Assembly: GCA_965221795.1 (NCBI GenBank)
Contig: OZ244914.1
Span: 3,130,030-3,194,029, forward strand
Origin: Candidatus Poriferihabitaceae bacterium
GTDB taxonomy: Bacteria; Pseudomonadota; Gammaproteobacteria; Arenicellales; Poriferihabitantaceae
Length of the DNA stretch: 64,000 nucleotides
Direction: 5' to 3'
This document shows, piece after piece, positions 9,537 through 29,192 of the stretch (position 1 is its first letter; each line of letters opens with the position of its first letter). The position numbers were made by a program, and so were the translations under genes. The notes under the pieces were generated by a model. That model was not told the origin of the DNA, did not search any database, and was given only the letters and a program-made list of their open reading frames with translations.

Positions 9537-11365
9537 GCGGAGCACTCATGAAGCTTTCTCAAACGCTCTATCAATATTCTGGTCTCGTCTTGCCAGCGAT
9601 CACCATCATATTGGTGCTCACATTTTCTGGGTTGATTGATCCGTATCTATCTTACGTTGCCACATCCTGGGTTATCTTTGGACTTTTGGGACTTAGTCTC
9701 GACATCGTCTGGGGCCGCGGTGGTCTTTTGAGCCTCGGTCAGACCGCTTTTTTTGGCCTCGGCGGTTACTTTGGCAGTATTGCTGCCATCAATATGTCGA
9801 TTATGACAGGCAACACTCTAATCTGGAGCTTGCCCATCGGGGCCTTGTTTGGATGTCTGTTTGCACTCATGATTGGCTGGATTATCTTCTATGCTCGCAT
9901 GGGTCCACTGCAGAGCACTATTTTATCGTACACCTTTACGCTCTTGCTTTGGGCGATCATGCAGTCATTCAAAGCCGATGTAGGGACGGCTGTAATTGGT
10001 GGCGATAATGGTATGTCCAATATTCCCGGCATGGTGCTTGAATTTGGCGAGAAGGCAGAGGCACTGGATCCAACCGATGGGTTCATTGTCACGGTAATTA
10101 TTGCAGCCTTGATCTATTTCTTCACCCGTTGGCTCCACCAAAGCACCTTTGGGCATGTAATCGATTGTGTACGATTGGATAGCCAGAAAACCGAACTATT
10201 GGGCTATGATGTCCGTAAATATCAACTTTTGAATTTTGGCTATGCTGGCGCAGTTGCAGGTATCGCTGGTGCATTGTTCGGTGCTTGGGCCAACTATCTT
10301 AATCCGTCTATCTTTTCCGTTCAGGAAGCTCTACTGGTGCCGATTTATGTGCTCGTTGGCGGTGTCGGTACCTTAGCAGGTCCCTTTGTTGGGGCACTCA
10401 CAGTTGGCGGTCTGTCTTTCTATCTTGGCAGCGGGGTGGTTGGTGGTCAAACGACATTAATTCTCGGTCTTGTCCTCGTCGTCCTTGTAATGTTCTTAAG
10501 GAGCGGGATTCTGGGTACTATCGATGTGATCTGGAGCAAGACATTGCCGGATCCAAATGATGCGGCAAGAGACACGAGCAAGGTCAAGATCGACATTGAA
10601 GTTCTGGAGAGCATTCTCACTGACGTAGCGCAACAGACCGAAACTGCTAAAAGACTTGAAACACAGGCACTGGTCAAGCAATTTGGCGGTGTAATTCCGG
10701 TCGACAAAGTGTCTTTGACCTTTGAGCCCGGACAACCATTTTCTCTTATCGGGCCGAACGGAGCCGGCAAAAGTTCATTTCTAAAGACTTGCGTCGGGGT
10801 TTATCCACCCGATGCCGGACAGGTATTGATTGGTCAGCAAGACGTGACAAAAGTACCTATTTGCGACCGAGTGCACCTCGGTATGGGGGTTAAAAACCAG
10901 AAACCCCAAGTATTTGGTGACCTGCCTGTAATGCAGAACCTCTGGATCGCCGCCTATTCGCGAACCCAAGATCGATCAAAAGCAAGGGAAATCAGCGAAA
11001 AGATTTCGCATATGCTGGGTCTTGACCAGCAGGCACAGGCACAAGCATCTGCTCTATCCCATGGCAAACAACAATGGCTTGATATAGGGATGGTGCTTTG
11101 TCTAGCGCCGCGCGTTTTGTTTCTGGATGAACCAGCTGCTGGAATGACCAACGAAGAAACCCGCGAACTTTCGAAACTCTTACGCATTCTTGCCAAGCGT
11201 ACGACAGTGATCGTGATTGAGCACGATATGGAGTTCGTTCGTACTTTGGAAGGGCATGTCACAGTTCTTCATCAGGGTGAGGTATTCGCTGAAGGCAACA
11301 TCAGTATGCTTCGAGAAGATGATCGCATTCTCGACATTTATTTGGGGAGGCATGTCCATGTTTAG
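9533..11365 (+). CDS. fused ABC permease (LivM/UrtC-like) and ATP-binding (LivG/UrtD-like) protein
   Basis: The N-terminal ~340 aa are hydrophobic (GLLSLGQTAFFGLGGY). The C-terminal ~250 aa carry Walker A GPNGAGKSS, the signature LSHGKQQWL and Walker B LFLDEPAAGM. The start overlaps the preceding stop (ATGA). Confidence 0.85.
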   Translation: MSGALMKLSQTLYQYSGLVLPAITIILVLTFSGLIDPYLSYVATSWVIFGLLGLSLDIVWGRGGLLSLGQTAFFGLGGYFGSIAAINMSIMTGNTLIWSLPIGALFGCLFALMIGWIIFYARMGPLQSTILSYTFTLLLWAIMQSFKADVGTAVIGGDNGMSNIPGMVLEFGEKAEALDPTDGFIVTVIIAALIYFFTRWLHQSTFGHVIDCVRLDSQKTELLGYDVRKYQLLNFGYAGAVAGIAGALFGAWANYLNPSIFSVQEALLVPIYVLVGGVGTLAGPFVGALTVGGLSFYLGSGVVGGQTTLILGLVLVVLVMFLRSGILGTIDVIWSKTLPDPNDAARDTSKVKIDIEVLESILTDVAQQTETAKRLETQALVKQFGGVIPVDKVSLTFEPGQPFSLIGPNGAGKSSFLKTCVGVYPPDAGQVLIGQQDVTKVPICDRVHLGMGVKNQKPQVFGDLPVMQNLWIAAYSRTQDRSKAREISEKISHMLGLDQQAQAQASALSHGKQQWLDIGMVLCLAPRVLFLDEPAAGMTNEETRELSKLLRILAKRTTVIVIEHDMEFVRTLEGHVTVLHQGEVFAEGNISMLREDDRILDIYLGRHVHV

Positions 11366-12056
11366 GATCAAGAATGCCACTGGCGGTTATGGTAAAACAG
11401 TTATTATCCGAGATATATCGATTGAGGTAACAGGTGGTGAAATCGTCGCTTTGCTGGGTAGAAATGGCGTCGGAAAATCGACCTTGATCCGTTATGCCAC
11501 TGGACTCATTCCAGCGATGGAAGGTCAGGTCGAAATTGATGGTAAGCAGGCTCCAGCCAGTTCTGCAAAACGCGCCCGTCTGGGACTTGGCTATGTACCA
11601 CAGGGCCGGTTCGTGTTCCCACGCATGACGGTATCGGAAAACATTGCCGTTGCAGCGGAGTCAAATGGTCATAACGGCAAGCATGCTATCGAACAAGCCA
11701 TAGGTGACTTTCCTTTGTTAAAGCCGAAAATCAATGATCTTGCGGGCGGGTTATCGGGTGGTCAGCAGCAGGTTCTCTCTCTCGCACGCGCACTCGCAAT
11801 TGTGCCACGAATTCTGTTGCTCGATGAACCGACTGAAGGTGTCCAACCATCGATAATCGATGAGATTGCCGGCATTCTGAAGCGTATCAATCAGGAACGC
11901 GGCATTGCCATCTTGGTCGCTGAGCAGAATCTTGATTTCTGTCTGTCCCTCGCAGAGCGAGCTTACGTCATGGAAAAGGGGTCCATACGGTTGGAAACCA
12001 ATCGCGAAAACCTACTGGCGGACAAACCCCTTCAACAGCAATTGCTAGGAGTCTGA
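11358..12056 (+). CDS. ABC transporter ATP-binding protein (LivF/UrtE-like)
   Basis: Walker A GRNGVGKST, signature LSGGQQQ and Walker B LLLDEPTEG. The start overlaps the previous gene by 8 nt. Confidence 0.85.
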   Translation: MFRIKNATGGYGKTVIIRDISIEVTGGEIVALLGRNGVGKSTLIRYATGLIPAMEGQVEIDGKQAPASSAKRARLGLGYVPQGRFVFPRMTVSENIAVAAESNGHNGKHAIEQAIGDFPLLKPKINDLAGGLSGGQQQVLSLARALAIVPRILLLDEPTEGVQPSIIDEIAGILKRINQERGIAILVAEQNLDFCLSLAERAYVMEKGSIRLETNRENLLADKPLQQQLLGV

Positions 12057-12147
12057 CATGAATGAAATCACAGTGCGGACCATCAATCAGAAAAATAGAA
12101 TCAAAAAAACTCTGAAAAGCATCCGTAAGGGCTTAGCGCGTTACCCA

Positions 12148-12254
12148 GATGGAAAATCATCTGAACCTATTCACATCTTTATGCCGAAAGTGCTTGATGC
12201 AAAATCATCCGAGCCTATTCACATCTTTCTGCCGAAGGTTCTTGATGAAAAATC
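12148..12254 (+). repeat. 48-bp direct tandem repeat (2 full units plus an 11-nt third start) immediately 5' of and running into the amidase start codon
   Basis: Unit 1 (12148-12195) is gatggaaaatcatctgaacctattcacatctttatgccgaaagtgctt. Unit 2 (12196-12243) is gatgcaaaatcatccgagcctattcacatctttctgccgaaggttctt. A third gatgaaaaatc follows. Each unit carries an ATG in the amidase frame. Confidence 0.9.
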
Positions 12255-13609
12255 TTGAAAGACTTTCGGATCAGATTGCCGCCTTAACTAGAGGTGAGTG
12301 GACAGCTTGCTCCTTGGCTGAGGCCGCTTTGGACCTTGCTGAAGACAAGGCGGGCTTGAATGCCTTCGTTGCGCTTGATCGGTCAGTAGTTATGGATCAG
12401 GCCAAGGCATCGACACAACGCAGGCGGCAACGGGTGCCGCTTAGTCCAATTGATGGCATTCCAATTGCGGTCAAAGACAATTATCTGACCACGGATTATC
12501 CGACAACTGCCTGTTCAAAGGCATTGCCTTCGGAGCCATGTGGTGTTGATGCAACCATAGTTGCACGGCTACGTGACGCCGGAGCCGTTATTTTCGGTAA
12601 AACCAATATGCATGAGTGGGCCTATGGGGCGACGAACTCTACATCAACCATTGGCCCCACTTGCAATCCTCATAACGAAAACCATATTTCTGGCGGCAGC
12701 TCCGGTGGATCAGGTGTTGCGGTTGCCGCCAGAATAGTTTCAGTTGCTCTTGGAAGCGATACGGGTGGCTCCGTGCGCATCCCATCTTCTGCCTGCGGTA
12801 TTTATGGCTTCAAGCCAAGCTACGGCCGTGCGTCTCGACACGGTGTGTTGCCTCTCAGTTGGTCTTTGGATGCACCAGGTCCGATTGCCCAATCGCTTGA
12901 GGACATCACGCTCCTTCTTCCGTATTTCATTGGGCCTGATCCTCAGGATCCCACGACTGCCGCCGCATTACCAATGGGGGAATTACCTGAAGTAGTCGAT
13001 CCAAAATTAATAAATTTGGTTGGTGAAGGACTCGAACGCTCAGAAGAAGTCGGTGAAGCAATCAATAATGCTTTGGCAAAATTGGAAGGAAATGTGTTGA
13101 ACTACGAGATACATGATATCTCCAGTTTTTTTTCGGCTTGGGAGGTAATCCTCCACTGCGAAGCATCCGCATACCATGCCCAACAGTATTGCAAAAACCC
13201 TTACCTTTATACTGATGTAACCCGTACGCATCTTGAGGTCGGTATGCAAATCTCTGGCGTGGAGCTACTAAAGGCTCAATGCATCAGGGCCTCTTTCCTC
13301 TCCCTGCTGTTGATTGATTTGCCGGAATGGGATGTTCTCGTATTGCCAACACTCCCAGTGACGGCACCACGAATCGATCAAGACTGGCAAGAATTCGGTG
13401 GTCGCCGAGTTACCACGCAAGACAGCATGACATGGTTCTGTTGGCTCGGTAACCTTGCTGGACTTCCCTGCATAACGCTTCCGCTGGCGTATTCGCAAAC
13501 TGGCTTACCCATAGGCATAATGTTGATGGGAAAACCGGGAGAGGACGAACGGTTGTTGTCGATTGCACAGTGGTTTGAAAACAGAGTAAAAGAGAGCGGA
13601 TCGACATGA
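12245..13609 (+). CDS. amidase-signature (AS) family amidase (GatA-like fold)
   Basis: GGSSGGSGVAVAA and DTGGSVRIPS motifs plus the catalytic Lys context IAVKDN. The third in-frame ATG (12245) has the best SD (gaagg). The ORF is open from 12149. Confidence 0.85.
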   Translation: MKNLERLSDQIAALTRGEWTACSLAEAALDLAEDKAGLNAFVALDRSVVMDQAKASTQRRRQRVPLSPIDGIPIAVKDNYLTTDYPTTACSKALPSEPCGVDATIVARLRDAGAVIFGKTNMHEWAYGATNSTSTIGPTCNPHNENHISGGSSGGSGVAVAARIVSVALGSDTGGSVRIPSSACGIYGFKPSYGRASRHGVLPLSWSLDAPGPIAQSLEDITLLLPYFIGPDPQDPTTAAALPMGELPEVVDPKLINLVGEGLERSEEVGEAINNALAKLEGNVLNYEIHDISSFFSAWEVILHCEASAYHAQQYCKNPYLYTDVTRTHLEVGMQISGVELLKAQCIRASFLSLLLIDLPEWDVLVLPTLPVTAPRIDQDWQEFGGRRVTTQDSMTWFCWLGNLAGLPCITLPLAYSQTGLPIGIMLMGKPGEDERLLSIAQWFENRVKESGST

Positions 13610-14742
13610 GAGAAAATCCCCTAAAAATAGGCGTTCTTTTCTCTCGCACTGGACCAATGTCGGTCTCAGAAATTGCACATATTCAAGGTGTTCTCTTAGC
13701 TTGTGAAGAAATCAATTTTGATGGCGGTATATCAGGCCACAAACTGGATCCGATTCTGTTAAATCCAGAAGGTCATGACGCACGTTATTCTGAGCTTGCG
13801 GCCGAACTGCTGATCGAACATCGAGTGCTAGCCATATTCGGGTGTTGTCTTTCAAGCAGCCGGAAAGCAGTTCTACCAGTGGTGGAAAGATTTAACGGCA
13901 TTCTGTTCTACCCCTCTGTCTATGAAGGTTTTGAATACTCACCAAATGTCATCTACGGCGGTGCTGTTCCTAACCAGTCGGTTCTACCGCTTCTGGATTA
14001 CATTTTCACTCATCATGGAAAGAGAATTGCTCTCGTTGGTTCGGACACTCTCTATGCCCGTGAGGTGAACAGTATCATCAATGAATTTTTACAGGAGAGC
14101 GGCGGCCATGTGGAAGAGGAAACCTATTTCCCGTTTGGTACAGACGGAAATCGATTTACGTCATTGCTGAAACATCTTGGAGATACAGATATTGATGTAA
14201 TCGTATCTACAGTCGTCGGTAATGACAGTGTTACGCTCTACGATAGCTTCCTAGAAGCTGGGCTCTCCAGTAGTGAACTGCCGATAGCGTCGCTGACGAC
14301 GACGGAATCCGAGCTAGCAAAGATCCAGTTGGAAGCAAGGGCTGGACATTTGTCCGTTTCTGCGTATTTTGGAGGCTTGAGCGGCCCTGCTAATGACCGA
14401 TTTGTCAAGGCGTTTCAGGCAAAGTTCGGCAAGAAAGTTATACCGGGTGTATATAGTGAAGTGTGCTACACGCAGGTGAAAATGTTTGCAGATGCTTTGC
14501 GTCTTTGTAGAGAACCAGATACAGATGCCATACTGAAAGCTTTGTCAGGGCTTGTTTCCAAAACCCCAGGCGGTGATGTTTTCCTAGATACGGAAACCAA
14601 CCATCTCACATTGCAGCCCTATATCGGACGCACTAATCCTGATGGCAGTTTCAGCATCGTCTGGAGAGGGGCCAACGTCATCGCGCCAGATCCGTATTTA
14701 GTTGCTTACGATCGAACTGTGAATAACCGGATGATCGGATGA
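13606..14742 (+). CDS. amiC: AmiC-like cytoplasmic amide-binding sensor (type I PBP fold, no signal peptide)
   Basis: LKIGVLFSRTGPMSVSE ... YPSVYEGFEYSPNVIYGGAVPNQ resembles P. aeruginosa AmiC. There is no signal peptide, the start overlaps the amidase stop (ATGA), and an ANTAR regulator follows directly. Confidence 0.75.
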   Translation: MRENPLKIGVLFSRTGPMSVSEIAHIQGVLLACEEINFDGGISGHKLDPILLNPEGHDARYSELAAELLIEHRVLAIFGCCLSSSRKAVLPVVERFNGILFYPSVYEGFEYSPNVIYGGAVPNQSVLPLLDYIFTHHGKRIALVGSDTLYAREVNSIINEFLQESGGHVEEETYFPFGTDGNRFTSLLKHLGDTDIDVIVSTVVGNDSVTLYDSFLEAGLSSSELPIASLTTTESELAKIQLEARAGHLSVSAYFGGLSGPANDRFVKAFQAKFGKKVIPGVYSEVCYTQVKMFADALRLCREPDTDAILKALSGLVSKTPGGDVFLDTETNHLTLQPYIGRTNPDGSFSIVWRGANVIAPDPYLVAYDRTVNNRMIG

Positions 14743-15338
14743 ATGGACAACTTCAGATCGAAGATGAAAACTTACTGCGCCGCTTGAGGCGCATGCGGGT
14801 GTTTGTAATTCATCCAGATGATGCTGAACGGGAGATGTTCTTGACACACTTAAAACGGATTGGATGCCGGGTCGACAGCGTATGGCCAGCACCGGTCATT
14901 CTCCCTGACTACGTCGATGTTGTACTGTTTCTCGTCAACCGTATTCATGACAAGGGAGCGATCTCATGGATGGCATCCAGCGAAACTATTGCAAAAATCG
15001 CCATCATTAATTTTGAGACCCCACAAATCCTCGCTGAACTTGAGCGACTGAATGTTCACGGCGTGCTTTCAAAGCCGATCAGAAGTTTTGGCGTTCTTGC
15101 AGCCATGACCACTGCCATTAGTCTGGCTAGGCATGAAACTCGTCTTAGGCACCGCATCAATTCTCTCGACAAGACACTCAAAGCAAGGCGGACGATTGAA
15201 AAGGCCGTCGAAATTCTCGCTCAGAATCGTTCGATATCTGAGCAAGAAGCCTACAAGCGGATTCGCGAGAAATCAATGAACTCCAAGAAGAGCATAGCGA
15301 TCATTGCTGATGCGATCGTATCTTCGGAGGGAGTGTAG
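14739..15338 (+). CDS. amiR: AmiR-like ANTAR-domain transcription antiterminator
   Basis: N-terminal pseudo-receiver domain. C-terminal ANTAR motif RRTIEKAVEILAQNRSISEQEAYKRIREKSMNSKKSIAIIADAIV. Confidence 0.8.
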   Translation: MNGQLQIEDENLLRRLRRMRVFVIHPDDAEREMFLTHLKRIGCRVDSVWPAPVILPDYVDVVLFLVNRIHDKGAISWMASSETIAKIAIINFETPQILAELERLNVHGVLSKPIRSFGVLAAMTTAISLARHETRLRHRINSLDKTLKARRTIEKAVEILAQNRSISEQEAYKRIREKSMNSKKSIAIIADAIVSSEGV

Positions 15339-15487
15339 ATATATTGATTCGATACAATCTTCAATACTCTTCACCCTGAAGATTTCCCGAGTCGACAGGC
15401 ATTCTCATGTGCCCAGCCAGTCCTGTCCAGACTCATGCAACGAAAAGAGGGAGTGACGGCTCGCCTGTAGCACCATCAACCAATGAA

Positions 15488-16177
15488 TCATTTTTGATTT
15501 CGTCCATAACGTTCGCGACGTTGCTGCTTTTGGGTAATTCGATCTTTCTCTGCTAAGGAATGTTCAACACTTTCCAGCCACTTCACACACCAATTCATCA
15601 TTTCACTGTCAGAAATGCGCGAAACAACTTGACCGAATTCAAGGCAACATTGTTCAACAGGATCCAGAACACTCAAGGAACTGTCATTTGAGTTGTCAAA
15701 TATTTCCAACTGATCAAACAGATCAACGGTTCGACGCAAATTCGACAATGAATATTTATAGCGTTCAGGAATAATTTTTGGGTCAACATAGTGTCCTGTA
15801 TTCTCCTGAACGCGACGCACCACCCTTTCAATATTAATCTCGGGTGACTTGGTCCCTATATAGATGCCCTCGATTCGATATTCCGCCTGTTTTGCCTGGG
15901 CAACGCGCTCGCGACCTGGACGACCGGAATAGGTACTTTCGATTCCGTAGCTCACCCTGTCAAGCATTGCCTTGGCAACTTCGTTGTTAACAATTTCAGC
16001 AGTTCTTTTCCGAGCATCAATGCTGTTCCAATCACCGATTCCGCCTGCCACCGAATCCTGATCAAAGTAACGCTCAGGCAATATGTCGTAATTTGCCCTT
16101 TTCCATGCACTTTTTCCAGCGCCATTGCAACCCATCACGATAGTGAATACGGGGCGATTGTCAAGCTGATCAGCCAT
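15488..16177 (-). CDS. zeta-toxin-like P-loop kinase / COG4185-type ATPase
   Basis: Walker A VMGCNGAGKSAWKR, then FDQDS, ESTYSG and RVVRRVQENTGHYVDPKIIPERYKYSLSNL. This layout is typical of zeta/PezT-related kinases. Start chosen at MADQLD. Confidence 0.65.
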   Translation of the reverse strand: MADQLDNRPVFTIVMGCNGAGKSAWKRANYDILPERYFDQDSVAGGIGDWNSIDARKRTAEIVNNEVAKAMLDRVSYGIESTYSGRPGRERVAQAKQAEYRIEGIYIGTKSPEINIERVVRRVQENTGHYVDPKIIPERYKYSLSNLRRTVDLFDQLEIFDNSNDSSLSVLDPVEQCCLEFGQVVSRISDSEMMNWCVKWLESVEHSLAEKDRITQKQQRRERYGRNQK

Positions 16178-16372
16178 GAATCTTTGTAGTATCGACCAGG
16201 AATGCCTGCTTTGGATTATCACGGACCGTCATTTTGAAGAATTCAGGTCGGTATCTTTGATAGCGTCTTATTTTTCTCAATGCCAAACTTGAAAAAATAC
16301 AAGGCCACCTTGCATGCAAATTCATATTTCTGCTTCCGGGTTGGCGTTATATAACTCCCCTTTTTTTCTCCA

Positions 16373-18388
16373 TCACTGCAACCGTTTCTTCTTGGCCGGA
16401 TATTGGCTAACTGCCTGCGCAAGGTTTTTGTCAAACTCCCATGGATAGCTAATCACTACCGCATTGCGCAGGGATATAAAGTCGCGGGCATCAAGCAGGA
16501 CACCAAACCATGTCTTAGCGCAGTTTTGGTATTTTCGAACCAGACAAGTGTTGGAGAGATAGGTCTGCGCTTTTTCCGGTGGCATCCGGTTGACCTGAAG
16601 GGTCAGACCCGCATCGAATGCTGACATGGGAAAGCTCATGCCGTACATGTCTTGTGCATTCGGTTGACTCTGCCAGCCATCAATAATAGCGTCGATTTCC
16701 TCAATCATTTCCCCGCCGAATTTGAGCAACATTAATCCGGTTTCGATGGCAGCCGGACAGGGTTGCGCTTCCACCTGTGCAACGATTTTTCCGACAACAG
16801 TTTGAGGAAGATGTGTAAGGATGCCCTCCGGCGTGGCGGCTCCCGGCATTCCCGCACGGCGCGTCATCATCGCGATATTTAGCTCGTGTGTGTCTTGATC
16901 AAGGATGGCCAGCATATCCACATCATTGTCAATCCACAGATTTTCGCGTAAGTGTACGTTGAGTATGGCGAGTTCGTCTGTTGCGCAAATCTTTTCGTGG
17001 TAGTTCACACGACGGTTCACATAGCTCAGAAACCGTAACGGTGTTGCCAGCATCTCTGCGACTACGTCGATCAGGAACACATCCGTGACCAGCGGGGGTT
17101 GGATGCACTGCGTCCTTTCATAATGCAAAAACTGATATGCCTGGTAAGTCAGCGCAGGGTAAGAATCCGAAACAACACAGACAACATATACCTCCTTGCA
17201 CTCAATCCTGAGGGGGATCCGTTCACCACCCTCCAGTGCCAAAACACAATCCTCCGCGAACAAACTGCTTGCGCACTTGAAGCCTTGATCATTTGCGTTT
17301 TGAACCGCTTTCGAAAAATCTGCTTTTGCGTGCCGAAGATCACCTTTTCTAGCCTTGACTGTAAGGCGTTTGGACTTGGCCTGCACAATGATCGCCCGGT
17401 CGCCGTACAGAACCAGCACATCCACTTCGCCTACGATCTGCTTTCCAGATAATAGGTTAACGTTGGAAAAAACACTGTCTCGGCCGAACACGTCCGACAA
17501 TCGCCTCTTGCAGAACCTTTCCGCAAAACTTCCTCGGTGAACGCTATGCGCATCTCGGTAGTCTGGATCGTCGGTCATCCAATATGAAGGGGTCGTATAG
17601 ATCGCCTCCGCTAGCGTGTAGTTCTGAAACAAAAGATAGCGGCTGGCACCCATCATGATTAGTGGTGTGGCCGTCGCGGCGTTGAAATCACTGATGGTGG
17701 TGAATCCTGCATTTTTGCCGCGTAGTGCGAAGGCTTCAAGAACCGAAACGACAGTTTCGACGCTGAGCCCACTTTCGCCTACAACCTCACTGACACTGGT
17801 GACGAAGTGGGGCAGTAGATTTCGATCACTACGGGCGATGGTTGGGGGATTGGACAGTATCGAATCCAGTCGTCGAGCTCTCACGGCAACGATAGCCTTG
17901 GCCACCAGAATCGCGTCTTCAATAACAAACCCGCGTTTGCTTCTCAACCATTCATTATCCGCTGAATATCGCTCTACGGCGAAATCAAAGTATTGGGACT
18001 CATAGGCGGCCTCGGGGCCGTAAATAATCGGTTCGCGCAGAGCCTCCCCCAAGTTGGGTGGAACTGCGGAAAGGGACGGTCTGTGAGGTGCGGAAACAGC
18101 ATCATGCAACTCCTCCATGAGCGTTAATGTCTTTTTCACATACTTTCGAACCAACGCGGGCTTCGGCAAGTCGAGGTCCAAATCACCTTGGACCGCCAGT
18201 CCGACCAAGATGTCGACCTCCCTTCTCGTTAGCACGGCAGGCCCCTTGACCAGAAGTTCAGGAGTCAGTTTGTCATCGGCCAAGCCAACCACATTCCCCT
18301 CTACCCAACAGGCGGCGATCGCGTGAGCATAGCCCGGCGACTGGCAGAGACTTCGCAAGTTATTTAGTACTGCCGATTCTTTTCGCAT
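16373..18388 (-). CDS. 671-aa hypothetical protein with a central PD-(D/E)xK (Mrr/NERD-like) nuclease motif
   Basis: GEVDVLVLYGDRAIIVQAKSKRLT (about nt 17365-17435) fits the D...(D/E/Q)xK pattern as seen in Mrr_cat/NERD domains. AGGA RBS lies 8 nt before the ATG at 18388. No other domain was recognised by eye. Confidence 0.5.
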   Translation of the reverse strand: MRKESAVLNNLRSLCQSPGYAHAIAACWVEGNVVGLADDKLTPELLVKGPAVLTRREVDILVGLAVQGDLDLDLPKPALVRKYVKKTLTLMEELHDAVSAPHRPSLSAVPPNLGEALREPIIYGPEAAYESQYFDFAVERYSADNEWLRSKRGFVIEDAILVAKAIVAVRARRLDSILSNPPTIARSDRNLLPHFVTSVSEVVGESGLSVETVVSVLEAFALRGKNAGFTTISDFNAATATPLIMMGASRYLLFQNYTLAEAIYTTPSYWMTDDPDYRDAHSVHRGSFAERFCKRRLSDVFGRDSVFSNVNLLSGKQIVGEVDVLVLYGDRAIIVQAKSKRLTVKARKGDLRHAKADFSKAVQNANDQGFKCASSLFAEDCVLALEGGERIPLRIECKEVYVVCVVSDSYPALTYQAYQFLHYERTQCIQPPLVTDVFLIDVVAEMLATPLRFLSYVNRRVNYHEKICATDELAILNVHLRENLWIDNDVDMLAILDQDTHELNIAMMTRRAGMPGAATPEGILTHLPQTVVGKIVAQVEAQPCPAAIETGLMLLKFGGEMIEEIDAIIDGWQSQPNAQDMYGMSFPMSAFDAGLTLQVNRMPPEKAQTYLSNTCLVRKYQNCAKTWFGVLLDARDFISLRNAVVISYPWEFDKNLAQAVSQYPAKKKRLQ

Positions 18389-18635
18389 GATGTTTTCCTG
18401 CGATTTGCTGCAGTGCCACAGAATATGGGGGGTTGCTGAGAATCGTGTAAAAATACACACTACCGGCTTAGCCGAAAAGAAGACAATATGTAATAAAGCG
18501 TTCAAAATGCCTTAGCGTAGGAGACCCTACACTCGTCTGGAGTCTATCCGCCTTACAATAATTGGACTAGGGCAATCATGCAAAGCACTGCGGAAAGAAT
18601 ACCAAACACGACTGGAAGAAAAGTTTCAACGTTTG

Positions 18636-19010
18636 TCATCTCCCAATAACCATTCCATTGTTTTCTGGTTTTAAAATCTCCCACTCCCGTCTGAAAAAAG
18701 GAAAGGCTATCTCGTTTTCAAGTTCATCCAATGCCTTGAATTTGCCAGAGTTGAGTTGACGATAAGACCTGATAACAACCCACCACGAAGCAGAGATCAC
18801 GAATCCAAGTATTCCCACAGACAGGAAAACGAAGTTTAGAGGAGATTCTGCGACGCCAGATTCGATAAAGACGCCCGCGGCCAGGCCCAGCCCGGAAAGA
18901 ATGCCAATGTATAGCCGGTTTGCCGCTTCGCGCCGTTGGCTGACCCTGTCAGCAAGTTCCGCATGGAGTTTGTAGATTTCCAGCAATTCGGTTTTTGAAT
19001 GTTCTGTCAT
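18636..19010 (-). CDS. small two-TM membrane protein (SLATT-like candidate effector)
   Basis: 124 aa. N-terminal amphipathic helix (ELLEIYKLHAELADRVSQRREAANR), two hydrophobic spans (LYIGILSGLGLAAGVFI, FVFLSVGILGFVISASWWVVI), then YRQLNSGKFKALDELE. Its start codon overlaps the stop of the upstream TIR-like frame (ATGA). Confidence 0.6.
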   Translation of the reverse strand: MTEHSKTELLEIYKLHAELADRVSQRREAANRLYIGILSGLGLAAGVFIESGVAESPLNFVFLSVGILGFVISASWWVVIRSYRQLNSGKFKALDELENEIAFPFFRREWEILKPENNGMVIGR

Positions 19011-19420
19011 TTTGATAACTCCCGAATGGCAGTCACCACTGAGTTAACCTGCCATCTCACAATACAATCGGCGGAATTTTTGACCTTTTTCGAAGCTCTT
19101 TCGCTTCCCCAGTATTCAATAGCAATGATGGGTTTGGGAAATCGAAAACCGTTTTTTGCCAAATCAATTTCGATGTTGATCCATTTGCTTTATGAAACAT
19201 ACATCCCCGCCAGTATAAGAACAACTCCGCAGGGTGTCATCTTACCCTTGATCGCTTGTGCAAGTTCTCTGTCTGAATTGGCATGATGGATAGGATCATA
19301 TTTAGGAACCGAATGATTCTTGTAGCTAAAGTAAGTTCTGTCATCTAGCAGTTCAACAAGACCATCGTAGTGGTCTGAGTAACTCCACGAATGACTAATA
19401 AATAGATTGTGTGTTCTCAT
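19007..19420 (-). pseudogene. TIR-like (DUF1863/MTH538-type) protein interrupted by one in-frame TAA
   Basis: MRTHNLFISHSWSYSDHYDGLVELL ... GVVLILAGMYVS, then TAA at 19192-19190. The same frame continues SKWINIEIDLAKNGFRFPKPIIAIEYWGSERASKKVKNSADCIVRWQVNSVVTAIRELSK. Both halves match the TIR-like family layout, and the stop sits where a Tyr (YSKWI) is expected. Confidence 0.65.
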
Positions 19421-19988
19421 AACAATGATTCCTACTATCACCGATATGTCAGATATATCCCATCAAGGGTACATTATGTTGCGCAACATAAGATGCAACA
19501 TGGGATTTACGGATTGTATCCTACTCCCCCACGACGTATGAAACACTACTGGCAAGGGGTTGCCTCCGTTTTATGAAATGAGATGTAATAACGGTTGGAC
19601 CGCCCTCACCCCACAACCGGGCAAGGTTTGGTATCAGCCACCGCAACCAGATCTGAGAAGACAATGCGCTAAGGCTTGGGACGCGAATTCGGCATCCCGA
19701 TCCCGCTTCTGCCACTACGTGACACTTACCGTAGTAGAAAGCACTCGGCAATGCCGCGTTACCGCAGCGTGCAGAATACCATGCGCAGACGATGCGCCAT
19801 AGTGGTGCGGTGTTTGGGGCTACGATATGGCAAGCACAGCCTATCAAGGCAGCCCCGACGAGATACGCAGACTTCATAACTGCGATGGCATTCTACGACT
19901 AAACAGGTGCTGAGGCAATTTCGCTAGTGTGGGTCCTCACATAGCGAAAAAAGAGGATTACGATAGGAAAGTTGACAAATTGACAGAA

Positions 19989-20845
19989 CTAGGGCGTGTT
20001 AACGCTACGCAGTGTATCAATGACCAGCGCGAAGACGACGAATCCGAGATACATGACATCAAGCTTGTCGAAGCGCGAGAAGACTCGGCGAAAGCCCTTG
20101 AGTCGCCGCAACAGGCGCTCGACCTCGTGGCGCCGCCGGTACCGTTTCCGGTCGTATTCCCAGGGGGTGATGCGACGGCTTTTCGGCGGGACCACGGGCG
20201 TGAAGCCGAGGTCGGCAACCCGCCGGCGGGTTTCATCGTCTTCACAGGCCCGATCCATGACCAGTGCCGGTCGTGCGACGGCTTCTTCAGCCGCTGCCGG
20301 AGCTCCCGCCCCTCCGGGGCATCGTGGGCGTTGCCGGGAGAGCGCGCGAAGGCAACGGCCGTTCGGGCATCCGCGGCCACCAGATGAAGCTGGGTGTTCC
20401 ACCCGCCCCGGGACTTTCCGATGCCCTGGGCGCCGTTTTTTGTAGCACCCCCGTGCCCTCGGGATGCCCCTTGATGCGGGTGCTGTCCAGGCCCATGGCC
20501 TCCCCCCGGATCCGGATCATTCGCTGCCGCTGCCGATGCGCGAACACGCGGTCCAGAACCCCGTTCTTCGACCACCGGTTCCTGCGCGTGTCGATGGTGG
20601 GCCCGTTGCCGAAGGGCTCCGGCAGGCCGCGCCCCTTGCCGCCGTGCTCGGCCACGTAGAGAATGGCGTTGAGTACCGGCAGGTTCGAGAGGCTGACCTT
20701 GCCCCGCGGCCTCGGCCGCAGCGGGGCCATGCGCTCGTACGGTGCCCGGGTAAGTTCCATTGCCGGTTCCTCCGTACTGTTCCGGTTGACAATCACGGGC
20801 ACCGAGTATACCATGTCTGGAAGAGATTGTGTTAACACGCCCTAG
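19989..20845 (-). mobile_element. IS5-family, IS427-group insertion sequence (about 857 bp), GC-rich
   Basis: Terminal inverted repeats ctagGGCGTGTTAAC (19989-20003) and GTTAACACGCCctag (20831-20845). OrfA runs from ATG 20760 (LPVLNAILYVAEHGG...). An A6 run lies at 20436-20441 where the frame changes to ...KNGAQGIGKSRGGWNTQLH. The C-terminal part reads DRACEDDETRR...RRHEVERLLRRLKGFRRVFSRFDKLDVMYLGF. A second frame change near 20270-20330 is needed. Confidence 0.8.
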
Positions 20846-20894
20846 TCCACATATGTATGATGCTTCTAGATTCCATCCTTTGCGAGAAAGTACA

Positions 20895-21512
20895 ATGATG
20901 AAGCTTACCCTCCCTTTCATTAGATTCGCCGCGCTCGCGCTTGCCACGTCACTGGCGAGTACAGCCCAATCTGAATCGATCAGTTGTACCAATTTCAAGA
21001 GATGCGGAGGATGTAATATATCCGTACCGAGTTCTGTGTTAAGTGATAAAAGTGCGGAAATCAGTTTATCTTGGGTATTGCTGGGGAATTTGTTGAATTC
21101 TGGTTATATTGCAAGCAACATATGGCATAACTGGAGCTACTTCATCTCTGTTCCCATCGTCTTGCAGGTGACAAAAACTCATGAAGGAGTTTCCGAACTG
21201 GTCTTCATGGAGAAGATTAGAGATATCACCTTTGACCGCGGACTAGGTTCCCATACCAGCAAAATCAACGATTTGGAACCGAATACTAACTACACTGCAG
21301 TCGCTTATACCGGCATTAAAGAAAAAAGCAGCTCGGATCCGTTTGCCAGAATATGCTTTAGAACAAAACCGAATGCCGACTGCCCAGAACTGGAAGGCAA
21401 AAGATATAAGGTGGAATCGTCAGACGGCAGTAGCTATTTTATAGTCGGTGGTCAAAAAGAACGGGAGGATTGTCCAGGAACAGGGCTGAGCGGGTATTTC
21501 ACAGATAATTGA
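20895..21512 (+). CDS. secreted hypothetical protein with an FN3-like C-terminal segment
   Basis: Signal peptide MMKLTLPFIRFAALALATSLASTAQS. LEPNTNYTAVAYTG...FRTKP resembles a fibronectin-III strand pattern. Confidence 0.5.
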   Translation: MMKLTLPFIRFAALALATSLASTAQSESISCTNFKRCGGCNISVPSSVLSDKSAEISLSWVLLGNLLNSGYIASNIWHNWSYFISVPIVLQVTKTHEGVSELVFMEKIRDITFDRGLGSHTSKINDLEPNTNYTAVAYTGIKEKSSSDPFARICFRTKPNADCPELEGKRYKVESSDGSSYFIVGGQKEREDCPGTGLSGYFTDN

Positions 21513-22202
21513 TTCACTCCTGACTTCGACGGGGGTTTTTTTTGAAAAAGTATGTCTTTTCAGTCGCTTGACTTTTCCGCTAGTGGATGTTGCGAAACAT
21601 CTCTTGACATCCTTGCCACTGTCTGCCACTTTTCACCCCGCCCCTGTCATGGGGTACCAACCTATCAAGAACACTACCATCCAGGCCTAAACGGCCCGAA
21701 GCTGCATATTCGGACTGGAGGGCACTGAACCGAGTAATACACGGAAAGCGTAAACGTACTGCTTACGCTTATATTTTCTGAAAAGGGGTGATAAGAAAAA
21801 TATAAGGCATTTCAAGGGGCGTTTTCCCCGGGAGGTTGTGAGGTATTCCCCGTACGCCAAACGCGGACTCATGGGCCCTGCAGGAGACCGTTTTCTGGTC
21901 ACCAGCATGAAAAATCGCGCCGGGGATCTCCTGCATTTTGCCGATCTCGCCAGCTGATTCCGGTATTTAGGACCACTGAAATCCAGCATTTACAGGAATC
22001 ACTGTTCCCCAACTCAATTACTCAGAACCTCCTTAGGTCAGAAGCGAGTGATTCTCAGAAAAATACCATACACAAAACCGATGGATGACAAGCTGCAATA
22101 ATGCCTGCTTTGGCCTTGGGGAACATCCAGGTCTGCAAGTGATAGGGGTGAACGGCATCCTTGATTGCGATCATGCTACTTCGCACGGTAGAATCTTTCT
22201 TA

Positions 22203-24521
22203 TCAGAACAGCGCATGCCAGCCGACCAGTAGTGCCAGTCGGTGTGGTGCTTCCGCATCATGGCCGGCGTGATGGGTGGCGACTGTCCCGAGTCGGAACG
22301 TACCAAACGAGACAGGACGTTCCCAGCGTACCGACAGGTCAACCTGCCTTCCGGAAGGTGCCAGGTCCGCACGCAATTGTCGTCGCAGGACGATGCCGTC
22401 TCGGGTACGTCCCGTAGGAAAAGAGAGCATCGCATCGCCATCTTCCACCCGGAGTGGCTGGGTAAGGGAAACCCGCAGGGATCCGCTTTCTGCCATCGAC
22501 CGGGAGGCGTGGAGTGCGAAGGCACTAGTGGTAAGTGGGGCAAGAGCCGTGATGATGCCACCCTGTGCATCCGGCCTTACCAGGCCGATCTCAGGTCCTC
22601 CCTCCAGTTGCCAGCTACCTGCTTCCGTACTCAGGTCCAAGCCAATAAAAACCGAGTCCGCGGCCAACTTGCCGAATGCCCCTTCTCCAGTACTGGCGAG
22701 GATGCTGCTGCGTTCATTGAGCCAGCCTGCTCGCAAGCCAAAAGGGATATGGGATGGATGCCAGAGTATGGATGTCCCTGAGATGGGACGGGAGTCCTCT
22801 TGGAAGCCTTCGGTGGTAAAGGCAGTGGTGGAAATATTCCGGGATTGACGCGTCGTGAGTGCGATGGCGTCATATGGGAGAGCGGTATGACCATCTCCCG
22901 TTCTCGCCGGGGTTTTTCGCATGTTGAACTGAATCTCGCCCAAGACAACATTCCCGTTCCATTCGGCGAGTTTTTCTTGTCGATTGAGCGGCAATGGTGC
23001 CATGAAATCATGCAATTGCGTGTCCAGCAGTGGCAGACCTGGTGTGGTCACCATCCGACCCAGATCGTACCAGAATGGGGCCCCCAGGGTGTCAAAAGCC
23101 GCAATTTTCTGACGGGACAATACCGTAGCAGGCCCATCGCCGAATGCTGTACCGAGCTGGAGGCTGGAGCCCTGCAGTGGGATCCCGGCTTCGGTCATGT
23201 CGACGCCGGATATGATCGTCGGCTCACCATGGGGGGACAGGGCAGCATCCAGGTCCATCAACCCATTGCCGTAGATGGAGTGATCAGCATAACGTCCCGT
23301 GTTGTTGGCAGTCTCGAAGAGTCTGGTTACCAACTCCTCACTCGAGAGTTGATCACGGAAAAACTGTTTGAGCAGGGCCAGCCCCCCCGTAACCATTGGT
23401 GCCGAGAACGAGGTGCCGGAACTATTGACGAAGCCTCGTATTCCGATTTCATCTCCATATGACCCAAAATAAGCGACCTCTACACGATCTCCCGGAGCGG
23501 CGATACACCAGTCTGCTGCGATTCCGCAACGGTTGGAGAAATCAGTAATTTCTCCTTCCTGGTCCACTGCTACAGTAGCTACGGAATGGCCCCGGAGCTC
23601 TTCGATTCTGGCCATCATTCCTGCGAATATATTGGGGGAGGCGGCATCCATCTCACCGGCCGGACGGCCCATATCGTCGGTTTCACTGTCTCCGACACAA
23701 CTGCCAGTACCTGGTCGGCATAGTTGTCCGTGGGAGTTGCCTGCCGCCCACACGAGAATGGTCTTATCTTCTCGATCAGTCTGCGCTAGGGATCGGATGG
23801 TCTGGCCGATGGAGTCGCGAAGCGCCGCTTCATCGGAGTAGTGATTGATCGGGCCGATGTAGCCGAAACTCAGATTCAGCACATCCAGGTCATGGGAGAA
23901 AATCTCACGATATTCGGACGCATCCGACTGGTCAAACGAGGCCAGTTCGGAGAGAGTAATCGACGACACCGCAAAATCCGGGGCCGGCGAATCTCCGAGG
24001 GCAATCGCAAACATCCGCAATCGGGCGTGGGGAACGATTCCGGTAAACTGGTATGGGTATTCGGGATTCCGTCTGCCGGCAATCACACTGGCCACCGCTG
24101 TGCCATGCGAATACTCATCTCCTATTTCATCGATGGAGTCGGGGCGTAAGTGCTCTGTTACATCGCCTGCAGCTACTCCCTCAACAAATACCGGGTGTTC
24201 CAGATCAATGCCGGTATCCATTACTCCCACATTAACCCCTTGGCCAGGTTGTTCGGAGCTATCGACGATGCGCAAATGCCCCCAGGCTTCGGCAAGCTTG
24301 ATGGCTGGTGCCCATTGGTTCCCGAAGCTTGGTCGTATCTCCTCGGCGACATCCTGCACGGCCAAACGGTACGCTTCCGATTCCAGACAACCCTGAACTG
24401 TATCAATACAGGTCGGTTGGTTGCCACCACCGCCACCGCATCCCGACAGGAGAGTGAAAACAGCCAGAATGGACAGGCAGGTAGCACAAGGACGGTCACG
24501 GTAGGTCAACGGGGAATACAT
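22203..24521 (-). CDS. subtilisin-family (S8) serine protease autotransporter with a lipoprotein signal (NalP/SphB1-like)
   Basis: Lipobox LLSGC. Catalytic triad contexts VGVMDTGID (Asp), HGTAVASVIAG (His) and GTSFSAPMVTGGLALL (Ser). C-terminal ~280 aa with alternating beta-strand character, ending WHALF. Confidence 0.85.
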   Translation of the reverse strand: MYSPLTYRDRPCATCLSILAVFTLLSGCGGGGGNQPTCIDTVQGCLESEAYRLAVQDVAEEIRPSFGNQWAPAIKLAEAWGHLRIVDSSEQPGQGVNVGVMDTGIDLEHPVFVEGVAAGDVTEHLRPDSIDEIGDEYSHGTAVASVIAGRRNPEYPYQFTGIVPHARLRMFAIALGDSPAPDFAVSSITLSELASFDQSDASEYREIFSHDLDVLNLSFGYIGPINHYSDEAALRDSIGQTIRSLAQTDREDKTILVWAAGNSHGQLCRPGTGSCVGDSETDDMGRPAGEMDAASPNIFAGMMARIEELRGHSVATVAVDQEGEITDFSNRCGIAADWCIAAPGDRVEVAYFGSYGDEIGIRGFVNSSGTSFSAPMVTGGLALLKQFFRDQLSSEELVTRLFETANNTGRYADHSIYGNGLMDLDAALSPHGEPTIISGVDMTEAGIPLQGSSLQLGTAFGDGPATVLSRQKIAAFDTLGAPFWYDLGRMVTTPGLPLLDTQLHDFMAPLPLNRQEKLAEWNGNVVLGEIQFNMRKTPARTGDGHTALPYDAIALTTRQSRNISTTAFTTEGFQEDSRPISGTSILWHPSHIPFGLRAGWLNERSSILASTGEGAFGKLAADSVFIGLDLSTEAGSWQLEGGPEIGLVRPDAQGGIITALAPLTTSAFALHASRSMAESGSLRVSLTQPLRVEDGDAMLSFPTGRTRDGIVLRRQLRADLAPSGRQVDLSVRWERPVSFGTFRLGTVATHHAGHDAEAPHRLALLVGWHALF

Positions 24522-25149
24522 CAGAGAACAGGGACTGGTCGAGAAGCGTTTCGAAGTGCAGTTGATATCACCAGATGGGCATCTGATTGGGTTTCTGTAA
24601 AGCGCAAACTATAGCATAGGATGGGAGCGGCACATTCCATGCAAGTCGTCAGGCATGGCTCTCTCCTCTGGATGAGGTGGTGCATTCGATATGAGAGGCT
24701 GCAAGCTACGGTCAGGCCGACAGAGAGAATAAAAGGAGTCGAACCATATCCCCAGATGGCTCACCAATTCGGTGCTTGAAAGTGCTAAAAATGATTCGAA
24801 GTCACCCGAATGAATCAATACAATCAGTCGAATTTCGACTGCGCAGGAAAACCAGGCACAGATTAATCCAGAACATCGCGAATCTCGGCATATGCACTTG
24901 CTCCAGTGTAATTTTCTGGACTATGGAGCAAGGTCGGAGGCGATGAGGTGTCAAGTCATGAATGTTTGAGTCCGGTCTTGCTACATGCCGGCTATGCTTT
25001 CAGCAGGGCGAATGGAATCTTCTGAAATTCGAAGTATAGTACGGCCCACTTCCGGGGGCGGTGTGGACCCTGCGACTATCGCCTATATCCGACGATCTGT
25101 CCAGGTCCACCTGGGCAGGAGAGTACGCAATAGGGCTGTTAGGAGGCTA

Positions 25150-27417: not shown

Positions 27418-27647
27418 TGTTTGGAGTTCTGGTCCGATCCGGATGGGTTGTCAATCAATACACCGTATCATAATGATATGACAGAATTGTGTTGGATCAC
27501 AATGTCAGAACAGAAGTAGTTTAGGTATTGAAATCAACTTGATATTCAGCGATATTAACCATGTTTCAAATTCAGGGGCTCTCGCGTCAGCGATGAATGA
27601 CAATTCCGGGTCGAGTTACGGCCTGAACCGACTCCATTTTTCATGGC

Positions 27648-29192
27648 ATGCAGCAGATACTGTCACAACTTGGCCAGTACTGGACTACCGTGATCGAATT
27701 CTTCCTGTTCGATCCGGCCTTGTTGGCAGAGCCAGACATGATTGTTCGGCTCTGTATACAGCTGTTTCTGCTCGCGGGCTCCGCATTTTTCTCCAGTTCT
27801 GAAACCGCGCTCTTTTCCCTGTCCCGACTGGACCTGCAGCAACTCCGAAGAGAAAGAAATCCCCGGGCTGAAACCATCCATGCCTTGTTGGATCAGCCGC
27901 GCCGGCTGATTATCTCCATCCTCTCCGGTAACGAACTGGTCAATATCGCGGCGTCGGTCAATATGGCCGGGATCCTGGTGACGCTGTATGGTGGGCAGGA
28001 TGCCGGATGGATCAACCTCCTGGTCATGGTCCCGCTGTTGTTGCTGGTAGGTGAGGTTACGCCCAAGACGATCGCAGTATCCAATCCGGTGCGGTACAGT
28101 GCCCGTATTGTGGCAGTCCCCATGCAGTTATGGGTGCAGCTGATGGCTCCGGTTATCTGGTTGATTCGGGCCGTGGCCGACCGTGTAACCACTTGGGTGG
28201 TCGGCGAAGCCAAGACAGCCGACAACATCCTGCAGGTCGATGAATTTTTGACGCTGGTGGAACAGGTCTCCAAGGAGGGGGTGCTGGATGCCACGGAACG
28301 GGCACTGATCTATAATCTGTTGGATGCTGGCGAGACCGAAATCGTGGAAGTGATGGCCCCCCGGACCCAAATGGCATTCATTAATTATGACATGCCCTTT
28401 ACCGAAGTCGTCGAAAAATTCATTGCCTATCGACATCCCCGAGTTCCGGTCTTCAAGACGCATCGGGATAATCTGGTGGGATTCCTGCATGCGGAGGATA
28501 TTTTGCGCCTGGTGCTGGATGACGCAAATCTGGATCGGATGTCAATCGAAGATGTGATGCATCCTCCGGTTGTGGTGCCGTTGACCAAGAAAGTGGATGA
28601 GATGTTTGATTTTTTTCAGCAGCATAAGGTCCGGGCCGCCGCCTGCTTGAATGAATTTGGCGGAGTCGACGGGTTCATCACCATGCGGGGGGTCCTGAGT
28701 TATATTTTCGGTGATATCAGTGGCGGAACGCCGGCAACCGCACGGTTATATACGGAAAAGGATATCAACGTGTATGATGTTCCCGGCGAGATGCGGCTGA
28801 CGGATTTCGATGACCTGACTAATTTTGGCATCTGGGATCCGCGGATGACCACGATTGGCGGGGTCGCATTCCGTCATTTGGATTGCTTGCCTAAAAAGGG
28901 CGACCGGGTGGCCTTTGATGATATCCAGATCGAGGTGTTGGAAATGGATGAGCACCGGATTGCCCGAGTTCGGGTTGCTCAAGGTATGGACCTGGATGAT
29001 TTGACTGACGAAAAGGAGGTCCATGTAACCGACCAGGATGATCTCAAGGACAAGACTCTCAATCGCCCGGATGCGGAAGCCGTGGAAGAGGGAGTGGATG
29101 AGGGGGTAGAGGTCGCCAATGAAGAGGATGTGGACCTTTTTGAGGATGACAGCGACGAACCGCGGGAGAGGAAGACGGGGACCGTATCATGA
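27648..29192 (+). CDS. CNNM/DUF21-CBS-CorC_HlyC family transporter (CorB/TlyC-like) with an acidic C-terminal tail
   Basis: FFSSSETALFSLS (DUF21), a CBS pair region, a CorC/HlyC C-terminal domain, then a D/E-rich tail of about 70 aa. Confidence 0.8.
   Translation: MQQILSQLGQYWTTVIEFFLFDPALLAEPDMIVRLCIQLFLLAGSAFFSSSETALFSLSRLDLQQLRRERNPRAETIHALLDQPRRLIISILSGNELVNIAASVNMAGILVTLYGGQDAGWINLLVMVPLLLLVGEVTPKTIAVSNPVRYSARIVAVPMQLWVQLMAPVIWLIRAVADRVTTWVVGEAKTADNILQVDEFLTLVEQVSKEGVLDATERALIYNLLDAGETEIVEVMAPRTQMAFINYDMPFTEVVEKFIAYRHPRVPVFKTHRDNLVGFLHAEDILRLVLDDANLDRMSIEDVMHPPVVVPLTKKVDEMFDFFQQHKVRAAACLNEFGGVDGFITMRGVLSYIFGDISGGTPATARLYTEKDINVYDVPGEMRLTDFDDLTNFGIWDPRMTTIGGVAFRHLDCLPKKGDRVAFDDIQIEVLEMDEHRIARVRVAQGMDLDDLTDEKEVHVTDQDDLKDKTLNRPDAEAVEEGVDEGVEVANEEDVDLFEDDSDEPRERKTGTVS

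Follow-up and report, generated by a model that had tools for sequence, protein, structure and literature searches.

In PglW and DndF, the effector is a NERD domain, regarded there as a DNase (PMC12839542, PMC10853773), and in Pseudomonas aeruginosa a stand-alone NERD protein, ZwsA (Zowangsin), cleaves the RNA of RNA phages and defends against them (bioRxiv 10.64898/2026.04.06.716636). Other systems close in fold or design are the type III CRISPR CARF-nuclease effectors Can2 and Card1, the Mrr-type type IV restriction enzymes and the proteins with a SEC-C zinc motif, such as the C-terminal tail of SecA, YchJ and YecA. In this work, we analyse a gene on the minus strand (16373-18388) of a 64,000-nt stretch of contig OZ244914.1 from a Candidatus Poriferihabitaceae bacterium; this whole stretch is the window, and all coordinates are window positions unless a locus is named (Table 1). 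A first interpretation from the letters alone (the sequence-only reading) had taken the product for an orphan with a central PD-(D/E)xK motif and a possible standalone defence system. By combining profile searches, structure prediction and comparative genomics, we predict a stand-alone, dispensable and horizontally mobile NERD nuclease, for which a role in defence as a single-gene system is plausible. Stand-alone nuclease defence candidates are already known, and the pattern of a nuclease in a genomic island is familiar; new are the central NERD core with a QxK motif, the two unassigned conserved domains around it and the SecA-type zinc tail of most family members.

The Pfam NERD profile (PF08378) matches residues 285-358 of the window protein with 17.2 bits (E value of 0.0076; gathering cutoff of 22.1 bits) and matches all 20 full-length relatives that we scanned, the best with an E value of 6e-7; precomputed PF08378 matches are also present on many homologs. 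We modelled the full protein with AlphaFold2 (AF2) from an alignment of 109 homologs, which served for residue conservation as well, and obtained a predicted local distance difference test (pLDDT) score of 89.1 and a predicted template modelling (pTM) score of 0.90. The modelled core runs in the order alpha-beta-beta-beta-alpha-beta, with E290 on a long first helix (residues 278-301), D323 on the second strand (317-328) and Q336-x-K338 on the third (331-338), followed by a helix (351-375) and a fourth strand (399-406). Foldseek searches of the PDB with the full model returned solely PD-(D/E)xK enzymes, among them Can2 (probability 0.99, E value of 2.6e-3), Cas4 SSO0001, the small subunit of R.BspD6I, Cdn1, ACE1 and AF1548, in each case at the domain level (TM score of at most 0.17) and never as a global match. 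Searches of BFVD likewise gave domain-level PD-(D/E)xK matches alone, and three of the 20 relatives have weak Pfam matches to Card1_endonuc.

Four residues of the core, E290, D323, Q336 and K338, do not vary among the 109 aligned sequences, far beyond chance; S339, K340 and around 45 positions elsewhere along the protein are invariant too. The NERD profile, the AF2 core, the Foldseek matches and the invariant residues together mean that the nuclease assignment holds: the protein has a NERD-type PD-(D/E)xK core in which the predicted catalytic tetrad E290/D323/Q336-x-K338 is intact. Thus, the central motif escapes the outcomes that the sequence-only reading had named as refuting, as the Foldseek search with an AlphaFold model puts it inside a PD-(D/E)xK fold and its putative catalytic residues vary in none of the aligned homologs. 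The arrangement is that of the NERD family, E...D...(E/Q)xK on an alpha-beta-beta-beta-alpha-beta core, from which the window copy departs in scoring below the gathering cutoff and in its invariant QxK, whereas typical NERD proteins carry ExK in motif III. On profile and model evidence, we place the predicted enzyme in the PD-(D/E)xK superfamily and, at the family level, in NERD, apart from Mrr_cat, from the ZwsA architecture, from the systems of PADLOC v2 and from the SEC-C proteins.

The earlier label 'Mrr/NERD-like' survives in its NERD half only, as neither Mrr_cat (PF04471) nor Mrr_N matches the window protein or the 20 relatives at an E value of 1 or lower. The QxK variant of motif III, however, has reportedly been described for Mrr, and Q336 varies in none of the aligned sequences. 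A type IV restriction enzyme of this kind would use a DNA-binding reader to spot modified foreign DNA, which the D-QxK nuclease would then cut, and would need no methyltransferase partner. The solitary gene, with no cognate methylase conserved nearby in 84 homolog loci, and genomic contexts with restriction-type genes would suit it, as would the helix/beta-hairpin element that AF2 places directly N-terminal to the nuclease, a possible nucleic-acid-binding module; the reader might be this element or the C-terminal domain. Residues 186-255, which form the element, are possibly winged-helix-like, an assignment that hangs on a lone TrmB match with an E value of 0.12 in one of 20 members. The window protein is, however, much larger than Mrr, NERD is its sole nuclease-family match, and no modified-base reader (SRA, YTH/EVE or similar) was found by sequence or by Foldseek with the whole and C-terminal models. 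We regard a type IV enzyme as unlikely, if still the alternative to be taken most seriously.

Outside the core, about 490 N- and C-terminal residues have no counterpart in the topoisomerase, helicase and kinase fusions of NERD domains or in PglW and DndF. Residues 1-185 hold a strongly conserved acidic and aromatic block, LREPIxYGxExAYxxQY...Y..D..W (conserved residues E119, Y123, Q132, Y141, D144 and W147), and have no match in sequence and profile searches of Pfam, NCBIfam and the PDB. At the other end, around 329 residues follow the motif, not the 290 or so first counted. With the separate model of residues 437-671, Foldseek gave weak nuclease-fold matches (TM score of about 0.2) to Cas4 (E value of 3e-3), RecE, lambda exonuclease, Rai1, CidB and Kpn2I, which is no more than a hint that this region may contain a second, degenerate nuclease-like fold; when the NERD core was compared with the C- and N-terminal regions by hhalign, the probability of similarity stayed below 1%, and there is no sign of an internal duplication. 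The degree of conservation differs little along the chain and peaks in the NERD core.

Among described effectors, Can2 and Card1 resemble the window protein in nuclease fold and, if its flanking domains are sensors as we suppose, in the general design of a sensor domain and a PD-(D/E)xK effector in one chain. The likeness is confined to the domain level, with a TM score of 0.17 over the query and 10% identity, and the window protein has neither a CARF or other Rossmann-like ligand sensor nor a CRISPR context. ZwsA is likewise a single multidomain protein of about 700 residues with a NERD domain, its effector, and the spacing of the active-site residues is nearly the same (E-32-D-13-E-x-K in ZwsA, E-33-D-13-Q-x-K here). 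In ZwsA, though, the NERD domain lies near the C terminus (residues 535-582) and carries ExK, whereas here it is central and carries QxK; compared with ZwsA by its published description (VHS-DUF647-NERD-S4, with E535/D567/E580/K582; bioRxiv 10.64898/2026.04.06.716636), the window protein and the 20 relatives have no Pfam match to VHS, DUF647 or S4.

Most of the family has a further feature that the window protein lacks. A C-terminal SEC-C zinc motif (PF02810; CxC...C(C/H)) of the SecA/YchJ type is present in 83 of the 109 relatives, and it was the only match when the PDB was searched with the single sequence and with the 109-sequence profile, aligning with the SecA and YchJ structures. In that alignment it is absent from the window protein, its clade and a few other lineages. 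In the window clade the tail appears, from the aligned sequences, to be replaced by a short basic one, YPAKKKRL(R/Q), conserved across the clade and reading YPAKKKRLQ in the window copy. Relatives with the motif include those of Pseudomonas putida GM4FR (L078) and of Agrobacterium pAt (WP_099086648). The earlier statement that there is no other recognisable domain is consequently right for this copy and wrong for the family. A SEC-C motif also occurs in the lactococcal protein Rugutis, a validated defence protein, where it is N-terminal on an unrelated novel fold and no NERD domain is reported (PMC13064643).

The tail is one ground for a further alternative, with RNA as the target. In SecA, the SEC-C motif binds SecB and the ribosome, and Can2/Card1, the best structural match, cuts single-stranded RNA as well as DNA, so that most members of the family might be RNA-targeting nucleases held at the ribosome or at a SecB-like partner and cleaving phage or cellular RNA. 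ZwsA, which defends on its own, shows that a NERD domain with the E-32/33-D-13-(E/Q)-x-K spacing can be an endonuclease of RNA (bioRxiv 10.64898/2026.04.06.716636). Yet the architecture of ZwsA is a different one, Pfam scans of the window protein and the 20 relatives show neither S4 nor another RNA-binding domain, and the window clade has lost SEC-C and kept everything else, which means that the tail is not essential. This alternative has a low probability in our view. A more elaborate version, which we think slightly less probable still and which would make the family a new class of single-protein immunity, has the NERD nuclease held in check by the two new domains, anchored in most members at the ribosome or the SecB/translocation machinery by the SEC-C tail, and cutting RNA on infection, with the window clade relying on its basic tail instead; docked in this way, it would survey nascent or translating RNA, or phage factors associated with the ribosome.

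Our strongest evidence is a sister genome, from which it can be read directly that the gene is dispensable. It is a 1.68-Mb contig (ERZ25070844, locus L091), to which we were led by a protein clustering with the window's polyphosphate kinase. Gene order is the same in both (ppk, S8 peptidase, 8xMP, zeta-like, amiR, amiC, amidase), and the flanks agree with those of the window at 99.4% identity on one side and 98.2% on the other (blastn, window 10716-29000). A 2,032-bp segment comprising the promoter region and all but the last 30 codons of the gene is missing there. The junction is clean, lies at a 2-bp GC microhomology and leaves the final 30 codons behind as a remnant (NAVAISYPWEFDKSLVQAVSQY...), so the site originally held the gene and the sister has lost it. 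Its neighbours, the 8xMP and zeta-like genes, persist without it.

This loss also bears on the suggestion that the protein might be a partner of its neighbours. The earlier placement of the gene between a pair of TIR and two-transmembrane (2-TM) genes and a zeta-like kinase, all on the minus strand, is recovered by Pfam matches (Table 1), and the shared strand and short distances (gaps of about 250 and 150 nt) would fit a multi-gene system with the TIR-like and 8xMP pair or with the kinase. Neither neighbour family recurs in the 84 homolog loci or beside the closest relatives, the sister genome keeps 8xMP and the zeta-like kinase without the NERD-family gene, the TIR-like gene has an in-frame stop, and the gene has promoter-like and terminator-like signals of its own. 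The partnership is largely refuted, and we give it almost no credence.

Table 1 Features of the NERD-family gene and its surroundings in the window.
Feature	Position (nt)	Strand	Basis or detail
NERD-family gene, complete	16373..18388	-	Uninterrupted ORF of 671 codons, translation; stop codon 16373-16375; 'NERD / SEC-C metal-binding domain-containing protein' family; homologs over the full length, 38-74% identical
N-terminal all-helical region, residues 1-185	17834..18388	-	AF2 secondary structure, invariant columns
Short helices and beta-hairpin, residues 186-255	17624..17833	-	AF2: helices 199-206 and 210-219, strands 243-247 and 250-252
NERD-type PD-(D/E)xK nuclease core (predicted), residues 256-436	17081..17623	-	Pfam NERD, AF2 topology, Foldseek
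Partner acidic residue E290	17519-17521	-	Translation; invariant in alignment
Motif GEVDVLVLYGDRAIIVQAKSKRL, residues 320-342	17363..17431	-	Translation; D323 17420-17422, Q336 17381-17383, K338 17375-17377
C-terminal region, residues 437-671	16376..17080	-	Helical part, then beta-beta-alpha-beta-beta unit; separate domain model pLDDT 91.8
Shine-Dalgarno core AGGA	18396..18399	-	Read from sequence
Sigma-70-like promoter candidate TTTACA-18-CATATT, upstream of gene	18422..18451	-	Consensus scan
Terminator-like hairpin then T-run, about 60 nt past stop codon	16297..16315	-	Consensus scan
Segment absent from sister genome, 2,032 bp	16466..18497		blastn; gene minus last 30 codons, plus promoter region
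Zeta_toxin-like P-loop kinase, downstream	15488-16222	-	PF06414, E value 5e-6; Walker A GCNGAGKS
8xMP two-TM protein, upstream	18636-19010	-	PF24838, E value 4e-28; weak SLATT_1 match too
ThsB-type TIR-like gene, beyond 8xMP	19007-19420	-	PF08937, E value 2e-11 with stop masked

The protein is no orphan either. A search of 5.8 billion proteins found at least 413 homologs, mostly full-length among the matches listed, with a close clade of around 24 clusters at 56-74% identity and the rest of those listed at 37-43%. A profile search of 1.84 billion representatives at 50% identity gave 1,019 clusters with an E value below 1e-30, nearly all of 700-725 residues and matched end to end, and at least 439 of the 185,579 species-representative genomes of GTDB encode a copy, which is a lower bound. 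Database entries name them 'SEC-C metal-binding domain-containing protein' or 'NERD/nuclease-related domain-containing protein'. Hosts belong to the Alpha-, Beta- and Gammaproteobacteria, Desulfobacterota, Acidobacteriota, Cyanobacteria, Chloroflexota, Planctomycetota, Bacteroidota, Chlorobi and Nitrospirae, a patchy distribution over many phyla and a small minority of genomes.

Purifying selection acts over the whole length of the protein across these phyla, and PD-(D/E)xK nucleases include many repair enzymes, which is what a housekeeping nuclease of DNA repair or recombination would lead one to expect. Such an enzyme would hardly be confined to so few genomes, deleted from a sister genome of 99.4% identity or borne on plasmids and genomic islands. 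Disrupted copies also show that pseudogenisation occurs in the family: on a Ca. Azotimanducaceae chromosome (L006) the copy is apparently disrupted, with no single ORF callable and a database protein (P0027) of 463 residues, and on a Chloroflexia chromosome (L074) it is split into ORFs at 9986-11032 and 11195-12034 of that locus. A housekeeping role is very improbable.

The family is carried by 35 plasmids of PLSDB, 22 of them conjugative, by none of 50,697 phage genomes and by 7 of 2.9 million IMG/VR contigs. Around 19 near-identical conjugative pAt plasmids of Agrobacterium tumefaciens carry it (L089, NZ_CP042276.1, 19753-35792), flanked by a pair of PLD-like and 1,142-residue AAA genes and by a His-Xaa-Ser (HxsABC) radical-SAM cluster; some GenBank records wrongly label this pAt gene 'prepilin peptidase'. 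The closest copy among the GTDB representatives, 71% identical over the full length, is in a Terriglobia metagenome-assembled genome (L007, CBDCKF010000002.1, match at 10001-12012), also lacks SEC-C and adjoins Mu-type (rve/Mu-transpos_C_2) and Mutator transposase genes. The identity and the transposase neighbours suggest a recent horizontal transfer of the tail-less clade.

To characterize the genomic contexts at large, we took 85 homolog loci with flanks of up to 10 kb either way, predicted their ORFs and grouped the 1,376 neighbour proteins by all-against-all blastp. No partner gene is conserved: even the most frequent cluster, that of large serine recombinases, is present in only 7 of 84 loci, ahead of ABC/AAA_21-type ATPases, mostly several kb away (6), two clusters of tyrosine integrases (5 and 4), HsdM and Fic/DOC (4 each), and Mutator transposases and TrwC relaxases (3 each). 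A qualitative survey of 138 neighbours from 20 loci with PADLOC and Pfam, which lists families rather than proteins and has no background control, found AbiEi (3), PDC-S45 (2) and MADS components (2) next to ordinary metabolic genes.

The closest relatives, compared directly, have no neighbour in common with each other or with the window, and their contexts are clearly rich in defence genes. One stands with methyltransferase, HATPase_c_3 and SNF2 helicase genes, another with TIR_2, ThsB_TIR, Nmad2, MazG_C and HMUDK_hel, a third with UvrD, HD, H-NS, NOV_C and MmeI restriction-modification genes, and a fourth with an integrase and type I restriction-modification genes. A further one has transposases and a TrwC relaxase nearby and, immediately upstream of the homolog (P0004; L001, 6951-7685, plus strand), a gene for a YfbU-domain protein; a YfbU domain has been reported in Kamadhenu, a defence protein of lactococci (PMC13064643). 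A Tn7-like element carries one copy as cargo, and this copy adjoins AAA_21/DUF4435, Mrr_cat, PoNi and AAA_13 genes.

These contexts would also suit a gene that serves the mobile element carrying it, as a nuclease for excluding or competing with rival plasmids or integrative and conjugative elements (ICEs), or as an addiction-type toxin. Integrases, large serine recombinases, transposases and TrwC relaxases are often adjacent, and the conjugative plasmids and the Tn7-like cargo point the same way. Against it, no small neighbour resembling an antitoxin or immunity gene is conserved, and the window locus is chromosomal and without intact mobility genes, its only trace of one being an insertion sequence (IS) fragment 1.5 kb away. 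As this explanation overlaps heavily with defence, the two are hard to separate by computation; taken by itself, service to the carrier is a doubtful proposition, on a par with that of an RNA-cleaving nuclease functionally similar to ZwsA.

Taken together, we favour an autonomous, mobile, single-gene effector of immunity or of conflict between mobile elements, predicted to be a metal-dependent endonuclease gated by its flanking domains, with a probability of roughly 0.55. Metal-dependent endonuclease activity would reside in the NERD core, with DNA or RNA as the substrate; the N- and C-terminal domains are supposed to recognise nucleic acid or protein derived from the invader and to license cleavage, which would destroy the invader directly or abort infection, and the SEC-C tail of most relatives may serve for tethering or regulation. 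The traits of an accessory gene are present, qualitatively speaking: a patchy distribution, a deletion polymorphism at 99.4% flank identity and mobile or defence genes as neighbours. The earlier proposal of a standalone defence system keeps its plausibility through these contexts and the lack of a conserved partner. The profile search against defence models that it had recommended gave nothing, however, as none of the 5,027 defence-protein hidden Markov models of PADLOC-DB v2.0.0 matches at an E value of 0.1 or lower.

That negative result is one of several points that weigh against the effector reading. No NCBIfam or PHROG model matches the window protein either, its NERD score stays under the Pfam cutoff, and Q in place of E or D at motif III could alter activity. 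The sensor role of the flanking domains is conjecture, and these domains are rather uniformly conserved, unlike many hypervariable domains that sense invaders. The association with defence islands is qualitative and lacks a background control, and some loci (L003, L005) and many neighbours consist of housekeeping genes. Literature searches found no paper on this NERD/SEC-C family, nor anything relevant on 8xMP.

As to the gene itself, translation of 16373-18388 on the plus strand meets stops throughout and was rejected. The gene starts at the ATG at 18388, preceded by AGGA at a distance of 7 nt, in line with the good ribosome-binding site noted before; a longer ORF of 710 residues from the TTG at 18505 was discarded, as the homolog alignments begin at the methionine of this ATG. 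The promoter-like and terminator-like sites bracket the gene, although such sites are no more numerous in the region than expected by chance, so that only their position is suggestive. The promoter candidate falls within the segment missing from the sister genome.

Of the neighbouring genes, the zeta-like kinase has an uncertain start codon (GTG at 16222 or an internal ATG) and no recognisable epsilon or antitoxin gene beside it. The reading frame of the TIR-like gene is broken at codon 77 by a TAA (...GMYVS*SKWINIEIDLA...), and its TGA overlaps the ATG of the 8xMP gene (ATGA). The two look like a decayed pair of TIR and membrane effector, similar to Thoeris. Identity to the sister genome drops to 91% and 84% over the 8xMP/TIR stretch, and besides the loss at 16466-18497 there are indels at 19088-19318, where part of the TIR gene is missing in the sister, and at 19577-21711. 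The latter segment, especially 19958-20998, is absent from the sister, has a GC content of 60-66% compared to about 46-50% around it, and contains an N-terminal fragment of an IS4/IS5 transposase (DUF4096, 20287-20838, minus strand, E value of 7e-12), so it looks like a foreign IS remnant inserted in the island. The low identity of the 8xMP/TIR segment and the further indels indicate a fast-changing locus: the region between amiR and the S8 peptidase and ppk genes is a hypervariable island.

For annotation, the consequence is that the gene is neither an orphan nor part of the adjacent TIR/8xMP or zeta-kinase genes. The family has culturable hosts in Pseudomonas putida, Agrobacterium tumefaciens (pAt), Achromobacter, Comamonas and Vibrio, which make it directly testable. 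If the defence role is true, it would be a widespread single-gene nuclease module, with about 1,000 clusters in many phyla and on conjugative plasmids, lying outside PADLOC v2, and would count, alongside ZwsA, among the few stand-alone NERD effectors known.

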